Shown here piece after piece: positions 2,888 through 27,254 of a stretch of 33,619 bases of DNA. Below the pieces are notes generated by a model that saw only the letters and a program-made list of their open reading frames with translations, was not told where the DNA came from and searched no databases. Origin of the DNA: a virus (lineage: Duplodnaviria > Caudoviricetes); IMG/VR virus record IMGVR_UViG_3300043103_000123, positions 1-33,619 of that record; one strand, written 5' to 3'. The translations under genes and the position numbers were made by a program. Numbering within the stretch: position 1 is the first letter of the stretch; each line of letters starts with the position of its first letter.

Positions 2888-3559
2888 ATGAAAACTACAG
2901 AATTTATAAATAAATATAGTCCTTGTAAAGACGGCAGAGAATATGCAGAAAAGTTTGAAACCATGGAGGAAGTCTGGAATAATTGTAAACGTCCCGATTG
3001 GTTATTTTGGATCTTAGAAAAACATAAACCCTTGGAAAAAGAACAATCTGTTAGATTAGCTATTGCATTTGCAGAATTAGCTTTAGTTAATTGGAAAGAT
3101 GAAAATGATAAAAGACCTTTTGAAGCAATCCAAGCGGCAAAGAATTGGTTAGAAAATCCATGTTCTGCTGCTGAGTCTGCTGCTGAGGCTGCTGCTGAGG
3201 CTGCTGCTAGGTCTGCTGCTAGGTCTGCTGCTGAGGCTGCTAGGTCTGCTGCTAGGTCTGCTGCTGAGGCTGCTGCTGCTAGGTCTGCTAGGTCTGCTGC
3301 TTGGGCTGCTGCTGAGGCTGCTAGGTCTGCTGCTAGGTCTGCTGCTGAGGCTGCTGAGGCTGCTGCTGCTAGGTCTGCTGCTGAGGCTGCTGAGGCTGCT
3401 GCTGCTAGGTCTGCTGCTGAGTCTGCTGCTTGGGCTGCTGCTGAGGTTGCTTGGTCTGCTGCTTGGGCTGCTGCTTGGGCTGCTGCTGAGGTTGCTTGGT
3501 CTGCTGCTTGGGCTGCTCAATGTGATTTAATTCGTCAATATATACCTAACCCTTTTTAA
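2888..3559 (+). CDS. Ala-rich repeat protein, Imm5-like family
   Basis: N-terminal ...RPDWLFW...DKRPFEAIQAAKNW motif, a long (E/R/W)(S/A/V)AA repeat tract, and a C-terminal QCDLIR..NPF. Confidence 0.7.
   Translation: MKTTEFINKYSPCKDGREYAEKFETMEEVWNNCKRPDWLFWILEKHKPLEKEQSVRLAIAFAELALVNWKDENDKRPFEAIQAAKNWLENPCSAAESAAEAAAEAAARSAARSAAEAARSAARSAAEAAAARSARSAAWAAAEAARSAARSAAEAAEAAAARSAAEAAEAAAARSAAESAAWAAAEVAWSAAWAAAWAAAEVAWSAAWAAQCDLIRQYIPNPF
3164..3517 (+). repeat. Coding minisatellite built from GCT runs
   Basis: Units are (GAG/AGG/TGG)(TCT/GCT/GTT)(GCT)n. Only six codons are used over about 118 codons. Confidence 0.95.
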
Positions 3560-3562
3560 ATA

Positions 3563-4309
3563 ATGAAAACAGAACTACAAGATATAAAAACTAAGTTAGT
3601 TAAACTAATTAACTTGTCAGAGAATGGAGCGGCTAGCCAAGGCGAGATTGATAATGCTTTAAATATGGCTGCTAGGATTATGGCAAAGCATAATCTAACA
3701 AGAGACGATATTGATTTAACATCTAGTCAACCTACAAAAAATGTTAGAATGTCGCGCGCTTATGTTTCATGCCTTAATTCAAACTCTACGACATGGGAAG
3801 GGAACCTAGCAAGTTTTTGTGTAGAGTTTATAGGTAATATTGATTACTATAAGACAAACGGTTTTTATAGTTTAGACAAAAGCAAGAAAATTACAGTTTA
3901 CTTTTTTTATGGTTCTTTAGACGAAGTAGAAATAGCAATTGAATTATTTACTGAGTTACAAGAAGCAATCTATATGATGGCAATGATAAGGTTTCAAAAC
4001 TTTTATTCTAAAAAGGGAGGTTCTTACTGTGAAGGTTTTATTGAAGGATTAGAACAATCATATCACACAGAGAAACTAAAACTTAGAGGAGATGAAATGA
4101 CCAATGCTCTAATGATTAAATCTAACAATACTTCTCTTATGATTAAGGAAAGCGCAAAAGATTGGTTATACCTTACACACAAAATAAAATTAAGAATGGG
4201 ACAAGGAACATCGGGAGCTAGCGGCGGAACCGATGCTCGCACAATAGGCAAAAAAGACGGTTCTAATTATTCTATCGGAAAAAGATCAAATACGAAAAAA
4301 ATTGGTTGA
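3563..4309 (+). CDS. DUF2786-domain protein
   Basis: N-terminal K.KL..L.E....S..E...A...A..IM.KHNL pattern and a central ..SY.EGF..G motif. Confidence 0.75.
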   Translation: MKTELQDIKTKLVKLINLSENGAASQGEIDNALNMAARIMAKHNLTRDDIDLTSSQPTKNVRMSRAYVSCLNSNSTTWEGNLASFCVEFIGNIDYYKTNGFYSLDKSKKITVYFFYGSLDEVEIAIELFTELQEAIYMMAMIRFQNFYSKKGGSYCEGFIEGLEQSYHTEKLKLRGDEMTNALMIKSNNTSLMIKESAKDWLYLTHKIKLRMGQGTSGASGGTDARTIGKKDGSNYSIGKRSNTKKIG

Positions 4310-4333
4310 CTCGTTTTATACATATCATAAATT
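4306..4333 (+). promoter_or_regulatory. Putative sigma70-like promoter
   Basis: TTGACT-16 nt-TAAATT upstream of gene 4384. Confidence 0.5.
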
Positions 4334-4383
4334 TCTTTATCGCCTCACGGCATCTAACAAAAACAACATAACACAAACAAAAA

Positions 4384-5106
4384 ATGAAAATCGCACTCGT
4401 CACAATCGCAGGTATCTCGGCAATCTCTTATGAAGTCCCATCTTCATTGGAGGAACTTAAAAACATTCTTACCCCAGATCAAAAGAAAGCTGAAGAAATC
4501 GCCTGTAATGCTGCTGTTCAATATTATCTACAAACTAACCTAATCAATGTTCGCAATAAGATTGCAGAATACCTTAGCAAAAAGTTTGAAATCAATCTAA
4601 AGTCTTTTGTCGGAAATGTAGAAGTGATTTGCACAGTTGATAATGATGGCAAGATTAACGGATATAAAGCCGTAGAAGGTAAAAAAACTTTTAAAGCTAC
4701 TGAGAAAGTTAAACAAGAATCTGCAAAGGATTTTATCGACCGTGTAATCTCTGAGAAAGCTCTTACACAAGATGAAGTTAAAAAGATTGTTCAAAAGATT
4801 GCAAATGCTAACCCGTTTAAAGCAGAACAAAAACGTGTTAGAGGTTCTGTAGCTTCAAAGCCCGTTGGCAAGAAATGGCTAACCCTAGCGGAAAAGATCA
4901 TTGCCAATGGTAATGGGGACAAAGCAGCGGAGCGCGTCAAGCTCGCCATCGGTCGCAAGCCTGATATTACAGGTGACGACGGCGTGAAGCGTCTCGCTAT
5001 AGGACTTGCCGAGGAAGCAAGGCTTGCCTTGGCCAAGCTTGAAGCGGAAAGCGACACCATGGCAGGGACGGAAGAGACTCCCCTTGTAGTGGCCGGAACG
5101 AAGTAA
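4384..5106 (+). CDS. Hypothetical Lys/Ala-rich protein (240 aa), probably highly expressed
   Basis: Long ORF with a G-free A/C leader, its own promoter candidate and a downstream terminator. Confidence 0.85.
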   Translation: MKIALVTIAGISAISYEVPSSLEELKNILTPDQKKAEEIACNAAVQYYLQTNLINVRNKIAEYLSKKFEINLKSFVGNVEVICTVDNDGKINGYKAVEGKKTFKATEKVKQESAKDFIDRVISEKALTQDEVKKIVQKIANANPFKAEQKRVRGSVASKPVGKKWLTLAEKIIANGNGDKAAERVKLAIGRKPDITGDDGVKRLAIGLAEEARLALAKLEAESDTMAGTEETPLVVAGTK

Positions 5107-11768: not shown

Positions 11769-12132
11769 GGCGATAAAATTTTATTGTTTTAAATTCAGAA
11801 GATAGACTTTTTATAAGTTGACAGCAAGCAGGTCTGTTTTTAGTTATATGAAATATAGCAGAATGTTCTATATACAAACCGACATGATGAATGATCTTGT
11901 TTTTACCCATTGCGCATAAATCAAACTCTTTAGGTTCATTTACTTCAATCCAATTTTTAAGACCGTTTTTAAAATTAGTTTCGTTAGAGATTATATCTAA
12001 CGGGTTTTCTACTGAATCAAATTCTGTTTTAGCGTCTATTGACAATATATCTAAATAGATTTTTTTAACAAGATCCCAACAATTGAAATCCTCTTTCCAT
12101 TTTAAACCTATATAATCTTTATACCAAGTCAT
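11752..12132 (-). CDS. NlpC/P60 tail assembly protein (gpK C-terminal-like)
   Basis: YIGL.W...FNCWDLV and HHVGLY....FH. Confidence 0.85.
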   Translation of the reverse strand: MTWYKDYIGLKWKEDFNCWDLVKKIYLDILSIDAKTEFDSVENPLDIISNETNFKNGLKNWIEVNEPKEFDLCAMGKNKIIHHVGLYIEHSAIFHITKNRPACCQLIKSLSSEFKTIKFYRHASRI

Positions 12133-13199
12133 AAACCGGGAAATCTATCTTCTGTATAGTATGCGTTAGGGAAAGCTGAGTTTGTTAAATCTATCCAGTT
12201 TAATTCACCTGCCACAATGTTACCTGAGATTTCCACATTTGTCAAAAATACCCTTAAAGGTGGGTCATTTTGTGGATATTCAGGATCGTTAGATAAATAT
12301 GATCTATATACAACTTCTATAGGTAAGTTATTTTTTATAGCACTTGCCAAGTATTTAGATACTTGTAAATCTGTGTTATCTATAGTAATGTTTATACTTC
12401 TAACACCTGTAGTTCCTTCACCTGATATTTTTATATCAAATGCTCTAGGTAAATATGTAACTTCTAATTCTGTTTCTGTTTTAGCTTCAAATTCATAACC
12501 GTCATTTACTAAATATATAGGATCTTTTCCGGTATATGTTTCTATTCTTAAAAGAGCTTCTACTAGACTAACTGAAAATTCTTCAGAGTCATAAGAATAG
12601 GGTATTTGTTCTCCTCCACTATCTAAAGCTAAATTATCATAAGTTGTATCGCTTGATATAGTCGTAAAATAGAATTTTACTTTTTTGTTTAATAAAGCTG
12701 ATATAGCTTCTTCTTCAGTAGATCCTCTTTCATGACTAGGTGCATCTGTTACTAACAGAATACATCTATATACAGAAGATTGTTGTCTCCATAGTATTTC
12801 GTTACAAGCTCTAACTGTAGCATGATAACCCGCTTCTTCTGTATCGTCACCACCGGATGAAACAATAGCATTTAGAAAAGATTCAATTTCTTCTTTCGAT
12901 CTTAGAGATGAATTAGGAACTAAATATATTTCATCTTGATCCTTAAAAGTTACTAAACCAAATCTAACAGAACTAAACCTAACTGATAATTGTTCAACAG
13001 CACTGGTTAAAGAATTAACTACAGATTCTATGACAGAACTCATAGAACCTGTATCATCTACTACAAATACAATATCTAACTGTTCGTTCTGATAACTAAC
13101 AGAAGGTTGTATTATTTCTATAGTTTCAATCTCTCTAACGTCTTTAGGATTTGTTATCCTACTTCTGATCAAAGCTGTAGATTGTGAAGGATCAGGCAT
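12129..13199 (-). CDS. DUF1833-like tail tip protein with an inserted vWA domain
   Basis: Flanks ETIEI.QP and PIYLVN...ITIDN...YRSYLS.D...P...FP...Y....FPGL; central DIVFVVDDTGSM...GLVTF.D...GGDD..E...LVTDAP.H. Confidence 0.82.
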   Translation of the reverse strand: MPDPSQSTALIRSRITNPKDVREIETIEIIQPSVSYQNEQLDIVFVVDDTGSMSSVIESVVNSLTSAVEQLSVRFSSVRFGLVTFKDQDEIYLVPNSSLRSKEEIESFLNAIVSSGGDDTEEAGYHATVRACNEILWRQQSSVYRCILLVTDAPSHERGSTEEEAISALLNKKVKFYFTTISSDTTYDNLALDSGGEQIPYSYDSEEFSVSLVEALLRIETYTGKDPIYLVNDGYEFEAKTETELEVTYLPRAFDIKISGEGTTGVRSINITIDNTDLQVSKYLASAIKNNLPIEVVYRSYLSNDPEYPQNDPPLRVFLTNVEISGNIVAGELNWIDLTNSAFPNAYYTEDRFPGL

Positions 13200-13201
13200 T
13201 G

Positions 13202-13753
13202 TTAGGCTTCATTTTTAGATATAGATCCACTAGCAGAAACTAAATAAGGTTTTACTGAATTAGGTTTATTATTATATATCGGTGATCTTGCTTCTAACAA
13301 TCTTGATTTTTCAATCCTTGTAATCGAAACTCTGTTACCCTGATTACCTCCGATAACATGATAATAAAAAGAATCTTCAGCTATATAAAAACCAACATGT
13401 CCGCCTCCATTACGTTTAAAAACTAAAACGTCACCTAGAGATGGTTTTTTACTTTTTATACCATAATTAACCCAATTTCTTGCCCATAGTGGATCTTTTA
13501 CAACATCTTTAGATTCACCTCTACGCATGAATGTTATAAAAGCAACAAATAGTCCGCACCATGCTATATCATCATCCGAAAATCCTTTTATACTAACACC
13601 TTCTTGATTTAGATCATCTCTCCAAGATATAATTGTTTTATTAGAACCTTTGCCTACAACTTCTTGAACTCCTAGCAATTCAATAGATAATTCAATAGTT
13701 CTAGGTAGAATACCTATATTTAATAACCATTTATACTTAGAGGGAAGTTTCAT
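13202..13753 (-). CDS. Endolysin candidate, TIGR02594 family (NlpC/CHAP-like Cys-His peptidase)
   Basis: DDIAWCGLFV, ARNW..YG, GDVLVF.R.GGGHVGFY, GGNQGN.V. Confidence 0.88.
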   Translation of the reverse strand: MKLPSKYKWLLNIGILPRTIELSIELLGVQEVVGKGSNKTIISWRDDLNQEGVSIKGFSDDDIAWCGLFVAFITFMRRGESKDVVKDPLWARNWVNYGIKSKKPSLGDVLVFKRNGGGHVGFYIAEDSFYYHVIGGNQGNRVSITRIEKSRLLEARSPIYNNKPNSVKPYLVSASGSISKNEA

Positions 13754-14323
13754 TTATTTAGAAGGTGTAGTTTCAATAGGAACTTGTAATTCTGTATAAC
13801 CTGTTAGATTTCCTGTTTCAGGATCATAAATAGGAACTTTTAAAAATCCAGAAGGTTTTTTATCAGGTGTAAAGACAATACCTCCCTTTGCTCCAGTTGT
13901 CGAATCAATATAGGATAATTTACCAGTTATAGGATAATTTTGGCAAGAAGGTAATACTAAAAAAGACATAGCAAAAAACAATATCCACAATCCAAGATTG
14001 TTAGGTTTGAATTTGTTATCTCCATTAATAAAGTAACTCCATACCATTGAAAACAAAGGTAAAAGTAGAGCTATCAGACTTGTAGCTTTTTCTGTAGATA
14101 ATAATCCTAACTCTACCGCAACGGCAGGAGCTACAGATAACAACTTTCTAATACCTGTTCCGATTGTTTCAAGTCCCTCATGATAATAAAAAGACCATGC
14201 TATACTAAATATTAAAATGATTAATCCTGCGATTGATTCCCATCCAGTGAAGCTTGCAAATGCTAAAGCTCCAATTGCTGTTAGAATTTCTCTAACTAAT
14301 CCTAATGTCTGTTCTTTGTTCAT
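13754..14323 (-). CDS. Holin-like membrane protein (tandem duplicated domain) with a C-terminal lipoprotein module
   Basis: Two repeats of R.(I/L)L(T/S)...WS(F/Y), then KFK-hydrophobic-LPSC127; adjacent to the endolysin. Confidence 0.7.
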   Translation of the reverse strand: MNKEQTLGLVREILTAIGALAFASFTGWESIAGLIILIFSIAWSFYYHEGLETIGTGIRKLLSVAPAVAVELGLLSTEKATSLIALLLPLFSMVWSYFINGDNKFKPNNLGLWILFFAMSFLVLPSCQNYPITGKLSYIDSTTGAKGGIVFTPDKKPSGFLKVPIYDPETGNLTGYTELQVPIETTPSK

Positions 14324-14329
14324 GTATAT

Positions 14330-14587
14330 TTATTCCTTACTTTGTTCTTGTTGTTTGTTATATTTACCTACATACCAGATGATTGCTACACGGTCCCTTG
14401 TTTCCCTGTGTTCGGTTGAAAGTTGTTTGACTTGCTCTTTTAAGTTTCCAAGCTCAAAGTGATTTGTTACTAACATACCTATACAAATCAAAAGTATAGG
14501 AACAAGAGTTGTTAGAATTGTCTTAACTGCTCCAGTTATTAGAGAGTTAATGTTTTCTTGAAAAGTATTTTCTTCTTCGTGCGACAT
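14330..14587 (-). CDS. Single-TM plus coiled-coil lysis-cassette protein (holin- or i-spanin-like)
   Basis: TM segment ILTTLVPILLICIGMLV followed by heptad-like LGNLKEQVKQLSTEH. Confidence 0.6.
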   Translation of the reverse strand: MSHEEENTFQENINSLITGAVKTILTTLVPILLICIGMLVTNHFELGNLKEQVKQLSTEHRETRDRVAIIWYVGKYNKQQEQSKE

Positions 14588-14603
14588 ATAATTAAAATTA
14601 TAT

Positions 14604-16679
14604 TTATCTACTTTTAACAGGGTGTAATGTTGCTTTTATTGTTTCCAAGACTAGCCCACGAGCATCAGCGGTATTCATTACAACTTCCATATAGTGGTAG
14701 TCAACAGTAGCCATGTTGACAACAGTTCTTTGTGGACCTATGACAATTCCGTTATATATCATTGTTGCATACATTATATGAGAATTTGCAGATGTTGATT
14801 TTCGGAGGATTTTGACGGTCCAAGGCACCGTTAGACCGTTTAAGGCAATACCAGAATCAAAGATCGTAGTAAGCACTGTGTTATTGTTGAGTCGGATTAA
14901 AAGTTGCTTTGTTCCTACCCCTTCCCCGTATCCACACAAATCAAATTCCTGCATACTACCTATTGTTAGACCGTTAATACAAAGTATGTTATGTCTCGAA
15001 GAAGTTGAATTTCCTGATAATGATGCTACTTCAGTATCTATAATTGCATCCCATGTTCCAGATGCAAATGCTTTTTGATTAGCAGAATTAAATTCAGTAA
15101 AACCCGGATTAAAAGTTAAATATCCATCTGAAAAAATATCACCGCCTACATTTGCATTAACATTACCAATCGAAACAATTGATGAAGCACCTGCACCTAA
15201 ACTAACCTTACTTTTAATGTTAGGCCACATTAGCGAATAAGGTCCCGATGCTTTCGAATCCACAACTGTCAAAGGCCGGTTTGTTCGATTGTCAGTATCA
15301 CCTACCATTGTTACAAGATAACCGGGTAAACGTCTAACATGCTCTTCTTCAATTTTAGGAGCATCTACCCAAATAGCAGTCGGTGAATAAGTTGATGAGA
15401 ATGTTCCACCTGAACTACTTGAGGGAGGACTTTGCCAATAAAACGACATATTTGCCGGGATTTTTGAGGCTAGATTTCGGTAGTAATATTCTACGGTCCC
15501 CACACCCTCTAGGCTGATTTGAAAGAAATCACCCCGAACTCTGAAAGTTATGATTGATCGTCTGCCGTATGGAATGGAACTCAACGCATCTCTTTTTACG
15601 GTGCGAATCAACTGGTTTGCAGAGCCTGCGGTCGTAAGCGTGATTGCTGATCCTCCGGGAGTTGCTGCAACTTGTATGCTGTTCGCGCTGTTGTAGAGCG
15701 CATAGTAAACCGTGCGCTCTTGCAACGGAGCCGGAAGCCCTGAGCCTTCAAGCGTGAACGCATCACCCGACACGATGTTGTGTGCGTAAGTGGTTACAAG
15801 GTTATTGCCGCTGCGCGAGCAAAGGTAAGAAATGGTTTGAGCTGGCAGCCATGAATGATATCCGTTGTGGTATGGTCGGTTGAGACATTCAGCTTGTCTG
15901 GCGACATTTATGCTACCTCCATCCGTAGTCAGATCAACAGAGGTGTTGGATAAAACATTTGCCCTTGATAATGCCAGCTTAAATGTAGTAGATGAAAGTT
16001 TAATAACGTAGTAACCCAATGAAGCTGAAGAACCTGTCGGTAATGTTCCACTGAGTTGAATATAATCATAATTTTCTAAACTATTAGAAGTAGAAGAGGT
16101 GAAAATATCAGTGGAAGAAGAGCATGTAACTACTGCATCAGCAACATTAAACGACATAGTTGTAGTAGCTATTCCATTTTGATCAAAATTCAAATGGGGA
16201 TTACCAGCTATCTGAATCCCGCTACCATCAGCTAAAACTAAATCAGGTTGACCGATGGCTAGGGTAAAATGATTGTTAGACGATGCAGTTAGAAATGTTG
16301 CTTCTCTAACAAATTCAATTCCCATTGAAAAATCTAAATGATTTTCAGGGGTAACATTTGCAGATAAATAGTAACCACCACCACGGGAGACTTGCAACCT
16401 ACCGTTTACGACCCGAGCAGCTCCGCTGGTAACGTCGCTGTTATAGCGGATTCTCCAAGCATTACCAAATTTTGGCAAAGAAACATTAGTTGTAAGTAGC
16501 GTATTATCTGGATACCTAGAAATATCCTCAAACCTATCATAAAAACTAATTTGGTTTCCAGCAGCTTTTAAAGCATTTTTAAAAGCAGAAGGATTAGATA
16601 TACCTCCACCGTCACCATTAACAAGTGAAGGTTGACCAAATGCCGTTAGAGTAGTAAGTAATAGTATAATATATTTCAT
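14604..16679 (-). CDS. Putative tail fibre / receptor-binding-like protein with a signal-peptide-like N-terminus
   Basis: Ser/Thr/Gly/Asn-rich beta protein with two copies of the LP......YY.......(F/I).(L/V)A.......I.LT..G fibre repeat; starts MKYIILLLTTLTAFGQ. Confidence 0.65.
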   Translation of the reverse strand: MKYIILLLTTLTAFGQPSLVNGDGGGISNPSAFKNALKAAGNQISFYDRFEDISRYPDNTLLTTNVSLPKFGNAWRIRYNSDVTSGAARVVNGRLQVSRGGGYYLSANVTPENHLDFSMGIEFVREATFLTASSNNHFTLAIGQPDLVLADGSGIQIAGNPHLNFDQNGIATTTMSFNVADAVVTCSSSTDIFTSSTSNSLENYDYIQLSGTLPTGSSASLGYYVIKLSSTTFKLALSRANVLSNTSVDLTTDGGSINVARQAECLNRPYHNGYHSWLPAQTISYLCSRSGNNLVTTYAHNIVSGDAFTLEGSGLPAPLQERTVYYALYNSANSIQVAATPGGSAITLTTAGSANQLIRTVKRDALSSIPYGRRSIITFRVRGDFFQISLEGVGTVEYYYRNLASKIPANMSFYWQSPPSSSSGGTFSSTYSPTAIWVDAPKIEEEHVRRLPGYLVTMVGDTDNRTNRPLTVVDSKASGPYSLMWPNIKSKVSLGAGASSIVSIGNVNANVGGDIFSDGYLTFNPGFTEFNSANQKAFASGTWDAIIDTEVASLSGNSTSSRHNILCINGLTIGSMQEFDLCGYGEGVGTKQLLIRLNNNTVLTTIFDSGIALNGLTVPWTVKILRKSTSANSHIMYATMIYNGIVIGPQRTVVNMATVDYHYMEVVMNTADARGLVLETIKATLHPVKSR

Positions 16680-25457: not shown

Positions 25458-25898
25458 TTAGATTACACGCGCCATGATAAACACAGGGGAAGCACCCGCT
25501 GAGTTATCGACAGCTTCTAAAGCACGAAGTTTAGCAACTCCTATATTACGTTTAATAACATGCCCGTCACCATTGATTTCAAGCATATCATTAAATACAA
25601 TAGCACTAGCAGAAGCAGGTAATTTACATTGAACTTCCATACCTGTAACTAATGCGCGGGCGTAAACAGTTTCGCCGTTAGCATAAACAGTATCTTTATC
25701 TTTACCATTGATAGAATTTTCAATAGCAATAATCAAGGGACCATCTACACCCGCACCTGTTACGTTAGAACGAAGAAAAGTGTTAGCAGCGGATTGTTCA
25801 ACAAACAAACCGGGGAAAATGTTAGTTTCTCCTGCTTTGCTTTCAAACTGCAAAGCACGACCAGCACCTAAAATAATAATAGAATTATGAGCACTCAT
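25458..25898 (-). CDS. Head decoration / cement protein
   Basis: Small Ala/Gly-rich beta protein between protease and capsid genes; I.PG..V...A.E...A.EA motif. Confidence 0.75.
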   Translation of the reverse strand: MSAHNSIIILGAGRALQFESKAGETNIFPGLFVEQSAANTFLRSNVTGAGVDGPLIIAIENSINGKDKDTVYANGETVYARALVTGMEVQCKLPASASAIVFNDMLEINGDGHVIKRNIGVAKLRALEAVDNSAGASPVFIMARVI

Positions 25899-25922
25899 TA
25901 TATGTTATATTTATATGTTATA

Positions 25923-27254
25923 TTAGTCCCCAAGGATAACCGATGGGGCTTTGTATTCATTGTTTACAGGTTGCGCACCTGCAATACTATAGTCAACAGA
26001 CTTATCAACATTAACAAGTAGAGCGTCTAACGCATCTTCATTAAATGTAGCAACAATTTCTTTTGTAAGATTTTTGTTAGTAGCAAGAACCGTTTCGCGC
26101 TTCTTATCTAACCGTTTTTCTTCATTAGCTTGCAAACGTGCTAGTGTAGCAGCTTGCTCGTTACTGAGTCCGTTATAGATAGGAACGACAGTGTTAGTAA
26201 CTGTTTCTTTTGGTTTATTACAACCGCAATTAGTTTTAACTTCGTTTCCATCATCGTCAAAGTTAAATCCGTGCTTAGTAGCAGCTTCTTCTAACTTGGT
26301 ATCTTCACTATTTGCAAAAACTGTAGCGGCTACACCTAGGGCAACTGCTAAAGCATTAATGATAGCTTCTTTCTTTTTTGGTTTCATTGTATGTTTATTT
26401 ATTATTGTTTCAGCACTTACCGGAACATACTTTCGTTCTAACCGAACTTCGATATTTTCCCCGACAAGAATGATTGTTTCTGTTTCGTCAACTGTATAGT
26501 TACGACGAAAATATTTGTTAGAAAATTCGTAAACAAAATACTGGTCGAATATATCTAAAATATATGGCCAGTTATCATCGCCTAATTCAACTTTTAAAGA
26601 TTTATATATACCTTCTCTGATTTGATCGAATGATTTTTCGTTTACAAATAGACCTTTGATCCAATTGAAAAATCCTTTTTTAGTTTTATCTTCATTTGTT
26701 CTCATAGCACCGCAACCCTGTTTTATAGAACATGCACCTATAGAATCAGGTAATAATGCAATGTGATCGGGTCTAATGTTAGATATAACATAATCGTAAG
26801 ACTCTTCTTTATAAGTTCCTTTACTTTCTACAGTATCTCCAAAAAGACCTGTCGAAACTTCCATTAACTCATTACCTTCAAGCTTTTCAATTATATGTAT
26901 ATAACCAAGCTTCTTGGCTTTAGGTATATTTAACCATAACTCTCCTTTAAGAGATAAAGAATCAGAATCCCAAAAAGCATTATAAAATCTACCTATATTT
27001 ACATTATTCTCAGATATAACTGAATTAGCTGTTACATTCAAACCCTTTTCATCTGAAGGGTGATTAACAGGCACAGGAACACCGTTCCATGTATTAGCAA
27101 AAGTTTCTAACTCATTAGCTGAATAAAATATGTTATTTAAAACACCTTCTTTTATAGCTATACAAGGTATAACTAAGTGTTCAATTCCATCTAAATCTTT
27201 TCTGCTAGAAGTAGAAGCTAGAGCTATGTTAGCAAGTAGTAATAAAGGATTCAT
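25923..27254 (-). CDS. Prohead protease/scaffold (DUF2213-like)
   Basis: WNG.PV...HP, EVSTG, DHIALLP...GACS...GCG; C-terminal helical scaffold region. Confidence 0.85.
   Translation of the reverse strand: MNPLLLLANIALASTSSRKDLDGIEHLVIPCIAIKEGVLNNIFYSANELETFANTWNGVPVPVNHPSDEKGLNVTANSVISENNVNIGRFYNAFWDSDSLSLKGELWLNIPKAKKLGYIHIIEKLEGNELMEVSTGLFGDTVESKGTYKEESYDYVISNIRPDHIALLPDSIGACSIKQGCGAMRTNEDKTKKGFFNWIKGLFVNEKSFDQIREGIYKSLKVELGDDNWPYILDIFDQYFVYEFSNKYFRRNYTVDETETIILVGENIEVRLERKYVPVSAETIINKHTMKPKKKEAIINALAVALGVAATVFANSEDTKLEEAATKHGFNFDDDGNEVKTNCGCNKPKETVTNTVVPIYNGLSNEQAATLARLQANEEKRLDKKRETVLATNKNLTKEIVATFNEDALDALLVNVDKSVDYSIAGAQPVNNEYKAPSVILGD

Follow-up and report, generated by a model that had tools for sequence, protein, structure and literature searches.

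Our preferred reading of the 189-aa phage protein described here, to which we give slightly better than even chances, is that a single chain combines a duplicated module of the PF23987 holin family with a small lipoprotein, and that the host cuts this chain at Cys127, releasing a lipoprotein with a role at the outer envelope during lysis. Sequence comparison establishes which modules are present, that they are conserved and exchanged, and that they lie at the endolysin gene; lipidation of Cys127 and cleavage by signal peptidase II appear likely. The architecture with an internal lipobox is a real, widespread, and apparently undescribed lysis-gene layout.

Organization of the lysis region

The window (the whole stretch of DNA analyzed, 33.6 kb) corresponds to positions 6455-40073, reverse strand, of record G001, a sequence of 46,121 bp with direct terminal repeats, and it is part of a long-tailed phage. 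The sole run listed for it, possibly the source, is labeled as a shale gas metagenome. Three lysis-region genes lie on the minus strand at the end of the tail block. The first (14330..14587) encodes an 85-aa protein with a transmembrane (TM) segment at aa 23-41 and a 44-aa helical tail, whose role is uncertain and which may be a membrane-tethered lysis accessory. The second is the holin-lipoprotein fusion gene (13754..14323), recognized from its ORF, its PF23987 match, and its relatives; a Shine-Dalgarno-like AAGGA (14334..14338, same strand) stands 10 nt before its ATG, within the last codons of the 85-aa gene. The third (13202..13753), whose ATG comes immediately after the fusion gene's stop codon, encodes a 183-aa TIGR02594/CHAP-type cell-wall hydrolase that is likely the endolysin. 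An earlier note on this DNA had called it a TIGR02594-type peptidase, and its score for that family is indeed 83.3 against a cut-off of 70.55; its best cultured-phage match is a Rhodobacter phage "cell wall hydrolase" (49.7% identity), whose gene is followed by a small holin-like gene.

We considered an assembly slip or a very recent stop loss as the origin of the fusion and rejected both, given an identical second assembly and more than 100 divergent fusions. The second assembly is a separately assembled 44.5-kb contig of run X1 (depth 37.6), possibly from the same sample, which shows no difference over 13000-14800. The junction between holin and lipoprotein carries a GGAG and resembles a relic start.

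Elsewhere in the window, the gene at 12129-13199 (minus strand) encodes a minor tail protein (DUF1833, phrog_396) preceded by a VWA domain, an unusual fusion at that gene position. On the plus strand, a 223-aa ORF (2888-3559) contains a long Ala-rich repeat of short AAE/SAA/WAA units, and a 297-aa ORF (1069-1962) has motifs that we take to resemble those of an ArdC-type anti-restriction protein.

A duplicated holin followed by an internal lipobox

The two tandem holin-like repeats claimed in the earlier note are borne out by profile comparison. Both aa 1-48 (14180..14323) and aa 49-101 (14021..14179), on the minus strand like all features of the fusion gene, are PF23987-like with two predicted helices each, and PF23987 matches the protein in two stretches (25757-25888 and 25907-26044 of G001) with 36.3 bits for the whole protein against a cut-off of 27, the single stretches alone scoring 26.2 and 17.3 bits. 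The repeats share 26% identity (E 2e-4) and the motifs REILT..WSF and RKLLS..WSY. An AlphaFold2 model built from a 27-row alignment (pLDDT 84, pTM 0.57) predicts five helices (3-24, 28-47, 51-71, 77-100, and 109-122) and four strands (134-139, 146-151, 158-166, and 173-182). A fold search of BFVD gave no match at E <= 0.001, and the VIA fold search with aa 1-105 gave generic four-helix-bundle matches only (best Z 9.2, rmsd 2.7, 99 aligned). Be it one crossing per repeat or two, a pair of repeats would traverse the membrane an even number of times, so that helix 5 would point outward if the N-terminus lies inside. Counting against our preferred reading, helices 1 and 3 are weakly hydrophobic, and a crude TM counter finds four TM segments in only two of five close forms. 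Experimental proof of holin activity for the PF23987 family was not found in the literature listings.

In E. coli, Lgt lipidates the lipobox Cys of a prolipoprotein, LspA (signal peptidase II) cuts before that Cys, and a product without Asp at +2 is sorted outward. The segment of the 189-aa protein that resembles such a signal, aa 102-126 (13946..14020), comprises a linker, a hydrophobic helix, and Leu-Pro-Ser, and leads to Cys127 (13943..13945), the predicted lipidation and cleavage site. What the earlier note had read from the sequence is present: K104-F-K106, a hydrophobic stretch at aa 109-127, L124-P-S-C127, Gln at 128 (+2), and a 62-residue domain beyond the Cys. The predicted mature lipoprotein, aa 127-189 (13757..13945), forms a four-strand beta meander in the model and belongs to no Pfam family; it ends in Lys189 (13757..13759), a residue that is kept across unrelated mature domains and that the earlier note had overlooked.

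Not all of these elements are equally conserved. The hydrophobic helix followed by the lipobox Cys recurs in the relatives, and Cys127 is invariant in alignments A2 and A4 and in 24/24 extended rows of A3. Given the same beta domain and the invariant Cys in A2 and A4, Cys127 is the counterpart of the Cys in ordinary lipoproteins with an N-terminal signal. The KFK patch, by contrast, is present but poorly kept (K104 in 3/27 and K106 in 4/27 alignment rows), and, among the matches listed, a linker with net positive charge occurs in just 48/72 double-holin fusions and 15/42 of the others, which counts against our preferred reading. The box itself deviates from the published consensus [LVI][ASTVI][GAS]C of the spanin survey, which also acknowledges deviations (PMC6139136), in having Pro at -2. 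Among the matches listed, the consensus holds for 21/114 fused and 9/14 free boxes, and Pro at -2 occurs in 66/114 fused and 3/14 free boxes. Processing may thus differ in fused forms, through the presentation of an internal box or through poorer cleavage.

C127 is the only lipobox-like Cys on the coding strand of G001 in two six-frame scans (ORFs of at least 30 aa). The looser scan, which covered 261 ORFs with overlaps counted twice, gave two more hits, both in antisense frames; the strict filter had missed 3/5 known family members, and the looser rule found 5/5. The earlier note had found no separate Rz/Rz1 pair in the window, and the scans yielded no separate lipoprotein gene in G001 as a whole, a record estimated by CheckV to be 78% complete despite its end repeats, so that a gene missing from it is possible.

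A modular and freely exchanged family

A HMMER search of 1.84 billion representatives returned 169 matches at E <= 0.001, of which 150 were listed; we dropped two very long repeat proteins and classified the remaining 148, which are representatives of clusters at <50%. Among these 148 listed matches, five (the 189-aa protein included) join the double holin to the same beta domain, 70 join it to another tail, 42 have another N-terminal module before the beta domain, 14 are free beta-domain lipoproteins, and 17 are short forms (16 holin-only proteins and one N-truncated fusion). A lipobox with a hydrophobic helix is found in 5/5, 67/70, 42/42, and 14/14 of the first four of these classes among the matches listed. 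Thus, the conservation of Cys127 and of the fusion in homologs, on which the earlier note had made its reading depend, is seen in 72/75 extended double holins among the matches listed, whereas the holin-only forms of about 100-125 aa there lack a lipobox.

The same beta domain also occurs with a textbook lipoprotein signal. Among the matches listed, only the 14 free relatives have their signal, a short one, at the N-terminus, whereas the Cys of the 189-aa protein is at 127. For two of the free forms (L019 and L023), the gene structure was confirmed in the DNA; some other "free" representatives are possibly truncated gene calls. The N-terminal modules before the beta domain fall, among the matches listed, into three mutually unlinked multi-member clusters (25, 10, and 5) plus seven singletons. 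Only the five-member cluster is the PF23987 double; the other modules tested have no Pfam name and are holin-like as judged by size, hydrophobicity, and position. On the beta-domain tree, the labels of these modules are as scattered as shuffled ones (34 changes against a shuffled mean of 32.6, with few columns and an unsettled bootstrap), which points to repeated exchange.

Exchange is seen on the other side of the junction as well. The 72 double holins with a lipobox carry, among the matches listed, 38 clusters of mature domains of 23-131 aa that are unrelated across clusters, and short mature forms of 23-30 aa exist (in L160, for instance, the mature part has about 24 residues). A C-terminal TM segment is absent from 127/128 mature parts among the matches listed, and the 189-aa protein has no 17-residue window with KD >= 1.8 after Cys127. 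One cluster of double-holin fusions, formed by P0003, P0035, P0036, P0040, P0041, P0079, P0089, P0108, P0123, P0128, P0135, and P0136, has a mature domain of 96-131 aa, in most cases with two additional Cys and no Lys at the end; this long-domain cluster may stand nearer to o-spanins as a functional type of its own.

Other searches found few relatives. Word-index searches returned only the fusion protein itself for the full chain, nothing for its C-terminal part, and 13 proteins for alignment A4. Cultured phages gave no match for the fusion or for P0162 and two weak hits for P0042, and single-protein scans of viral, metagenome, and genome contigs returned only the source record or single holins. 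A degenerate pattern scan of genomes gave 120 loci, none with the beta domain. Single copies of PF23987, of 53-57 aa, are present in other phages.

Genomic context of the relatives

The beta domain was found in nine viral loci (the source record, two that are near-identical to it, and six others), which makes seven distinct loci, five with fusions and two with free lipoproteins. The beta lipoprotein lies between holin and endolysin in 7/7 of these; the following gene encodes a Peptidase M15 or Amidase_3 endolysin in 6/7, and in L020 the endolysin stands one gene further on. L023 has separate genes for a 57-aa two-helix membrane protein and for the lipoprotein, which overlap at ATGA, a layout from which a fusion could arise easily. 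A fuller scan of five records gave no lipobox candidate in the lysis cassette besides the family member, and two of these records have another lipoprotein-like gene elsewhere. The fusion of L160 counts against our preferred reading, since its surroundings are tail genes and a 208-aa protein without a Pfam hit is encoded about 2 kb away.

Several neighboring observations deserve mention in their own right. The 208-aa protein of L160 (5895-6521) occupies the endolysin position and is followed by a 65-aa TM protein resembling that of L023. In L003, a 187-kb phage, a free 54-aa PF23987-like holin has directly behind it a separate 114-aa lipoprotein whose last residue is not Lys (4001-4573). In the Mu-like loci L018, L021, L024, and L025, downstream of the endolysin, a small conserved gene (about 70-110 aa) separates the endolysin gene from that of the TM protein.

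A conserved C-terminal lysine

Lys is the last residue in 114/129 lipobox proteins and in 4/16 holin-only proteins among the matches listed, a difference for which the Fisher p of 2e-7 is overstated because relatives are not independent; for comparison, 7/37 coding-strand ORFs of the window end in Lys. Among the matches listed, 77/128 end in an aliphatic residue, one to three further residues, a small residue, a small or acidic one, and Lys. The main exception is one long-domain cluster, with Lys in 2/12.

This residue recalls the wall-anchoring Lys of Braun's lipoprotein, an analogy that provides a new and testable clue. A preprint (10.1101/2024.09.03.610988) describes Lpp as linked to the wall via its terminal Lys and reports that, in Dickeya, a terminal Lys is both required and enough for the wall attachment of OutB and of a reporter. 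The same source puts the share of E. coli periplasmic proteins with a final Lys at more than 20%, which counts against our preferred reading.

Proposed mechanism and alternatives

We propose the following sequence of events. With the N-terminus inside and an even number of crossings, helix 5 would run outward and present Cys127 to Lgt and LspA. After the cut, the holin with its fifth helix would remain in place, and a 63-residue lipoprotein would go outward; lacking Asp at +2, as do all lipobox proteins among the matches listed (Asp in 0/128), it would be sorted to the outer membrane by the E. coli rule, which may not hold in the actual host. Its lipidated Cys and C-terminal Lys could then form a link between outer membrane and wall, made by a host L,D-transpeptidase as for Lpp, without a sequence-specific i-spanin partner. 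In the weakest step of the proposal, such links would load or weaken the outer membrane, which would give way when, with the holin open, the endolysin has removed the wall. As only the two ends of the lipoprotein are conserved, host machinery (lipid anchor and wall linkage) is favored over a phage partner.

The earlier note had instead taken the released lipoprotein as an o-spanin and the 85-aa protein as its i-spanin, the pair fusing both membranes and the cut coupling holin and spanin 1:1. Part of this holds, namely the lipoprotein domain, the textbook signal in relatives, the lysis cassette, and the absence of Asp at +2, and the pairing can also draw on a TM plus helical protein that adjoins in the window and in eight related loci examined, as well as on the survey, in which separated o-spanins are richer in beta sheet (PMC6139136). 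In our own reading, moreover, the PF23987-like holins of Pan4 and RcSimone-Hastad are followed by short i-spanin-like genes (73 and 82 aa) and overlapped lipoprotein-like genes. However, the analysis does not support the 85-aa protein as the i-spanin: an IMG/VR search returned only the protein itself, no Pfam or NCBIfam hit exceeded the cut-off, one basic residue stands on each side of the TM segment with no clear charge asymmetry, and the tail, of just 44 aa, has no Cys. None of 61 beta-domain proteins among the matches listed has an extra Cys either, against a periplasmic Cys in 507/528 two-component spanins in the survey (PMC6139136). The TM proteins of five Mu-like relatives carry basic residues behind the TM segment, the charge distribution of the N-out/C-in type of Mu gp25 (PMC9239132), though two i-spanin-like controls show the same pattern, so that charge does not discriminate between the topologies; in two of the five, this protein precedes a small winged-helix-like gene. 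Finally, mutually unrelated mature domains of 23 to 131 aa, exchanged freely behind the double holin (38 clusters among the 72 listed), fit poorly with a co-evolving partner. We therefore consider the spanin pairing unlikely.

We judge it similarly unlikely, if not a shade more so, that the chain stays uncut, lipidated or not, as a five-helix holin whose periplasmic domain anchors to the wall via Lys189 or regulates timing. The enrichment of Pro at -2 in fused forms would suit this, as would OutB, an inner-membrane protein tethered to peptidoglycan by its terminal Lys (10.1101/2024.09.03.610988), and the existence of holin-only forms, which makes the tail optional. Against it, relatives retain the hydrophobic helix and the whole Leu-x-Ser-Cys, the features recognized by the peptidase, and identical domains occur as ordinary lipoproteins, some of which (P0081 and P0150) share the LPSC box.

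That the lipoprotein arises mainly from an internal start at Met93, in a dual-start gene that needs no polyprotein processing, seems improbable to us. Met93 lies 34 residues before Cys127 and its column has Met in 10/27 rows, and 49/114 fusions among the matches listed have a Met 15-32 residues before the Cys; a Shine-Dalgarno-like site is clear in just one of the five genes inspected here, so its absence at Met93 means little. Nevertheless, 65/114 listed fusions have no Met in that interval, its position is not conserved, and, with no stop after the holin, the full-length chain would be made regardless. Llp, Cor, and Bor are examples of phage lipoproteins for receptor blocking or envelope modification, and the idea that ours is a late passenger of that sort, riding the holin for expression and without a role in breaking the outer membrane, would accord with the unrelated, exchangeable mature domains, with the L160 fusion among tail genes, and with the lipoproteins without a linked i-spanin in 31 genomes found by Kongari et al., but is the most doubtful of these alternatives given the location between holin and endolysin in all seven beta-domain loci and the lack of any other lipoprotein candidate in G001.

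Relation to known lysis systems

The fusion occupies the position of an o-spanin and fails the two-component and unimolecular definitions on the features tested. With two-component spanins such as lambda Rz/Rz1 and T4 PseT.3/PseT.2 (PMC6139136), it shares a small lipoprotein in the lysis cassette without Asp at +2, but here the signal is internal and behind a holin, a periplasmic Cys is lacking, the mature domain is exchangeable, and the terminal Lys is conserved. With the unimolecular spanin T1 gp11 (PMC6139136), it shares a single gene with a lipobox, membrane helices, and a beta-rich periplasmic domain, but the order is reversed, with the helices standing before the lipobox, where cleavage would remove them, and a C-terminal TM segment is missing, as in 127/128 listed mature parts.

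The likeness to PF23987 Phage_holin_10 (the Pam3 gp28 family) lies in two copies that bring the whole protein above the Pfam cut-off, and the difference in their tandem duplication and the lipoprotein extension. Lpp and OutB (10.1101/2024.09.03.610988) resemble the family in an N-terminal lipid-Cys (predicted here), a C-terminal Lys, and short mature forms; Lpp is a trimeric helix, however, whereas the domain here is a phage-encoded beta domain, and the likeness is claimed from the ends and not from sequence similarity. The 85-aa protein, like the TM proteins of the Mu-like relatives, resembles Mu gp25 releasin/DUF2730 (PMC9239132) in being a small single-TM protein near the endolysin gene, but none of these proteins has a PF10805 hit, and the endolysin here has no visible N-terminal anchor.

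We found no description of holin/lipoprotein fusions, internal lipoboxes, or internally signaled bacterial polyproteins in the full-text literature, a search outside of which lay the SpaninDB supplements and most subscription papers. Bradyrhizobium FbcH is a bacterial polyprotein that is cut internally, by signal peptidase I.

Host

As to the host, Atlas hits scoring 0.79-0.81 provide a weak lead to Verrucomicrobiota. Phylum samples of 401 genomes each, centered on G002 and on a Planctomycetota genome, gave only weak, unrelated hits (one and two, respectively), and no true match came from 301 genomes near a Bacteroidota genome or from 401 near a Pseudomonadota genome; these searches had no positive control and, as they included no Verrucomicrobiota sample, show little on the host. 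Verrucomicrobia phage P8625 has no such gene within 19.5-20.9 kb, the sole part translated. G002 (locus L117) is titled a Verrucomicrobiia bacterium; an acidobacterial VWFA family matches it 34 times and a verrucomicrobial marker not at all. These markers suggest that its group is Acidobacteriota and not Verrucomicrobiota, and the title may mislead.

Significance

About 13% of the surveyed phages of Gram-negative hosts have no recognizable spanin, and the spanin survey sought N-terminal lipoprotein signals (PMC6139136), so lipoproteins located behind a holin would have been missed and annotated as plain holins or hypothetical proteins. More tentatively, the family may represent a third route to outer-membrane failure, widespread within one host group, in which signal peptidase II splits a polyprotein at a lipobox within the chain and host enzymes fasten the freed lipoprotein to peptidoglycan by its last Lys, with no i-spanin; we see this as possible rather than probable. 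If true, lipoprotein maturation would work routinely behind two to four membrane helices. The family offers directly testable cases of internal processing by signal peptidase II, a candidate partner-free mechanism for the last lysis step, and a possible Lpp-like terminal-lysine anchor outside gamma-proteobacteria.
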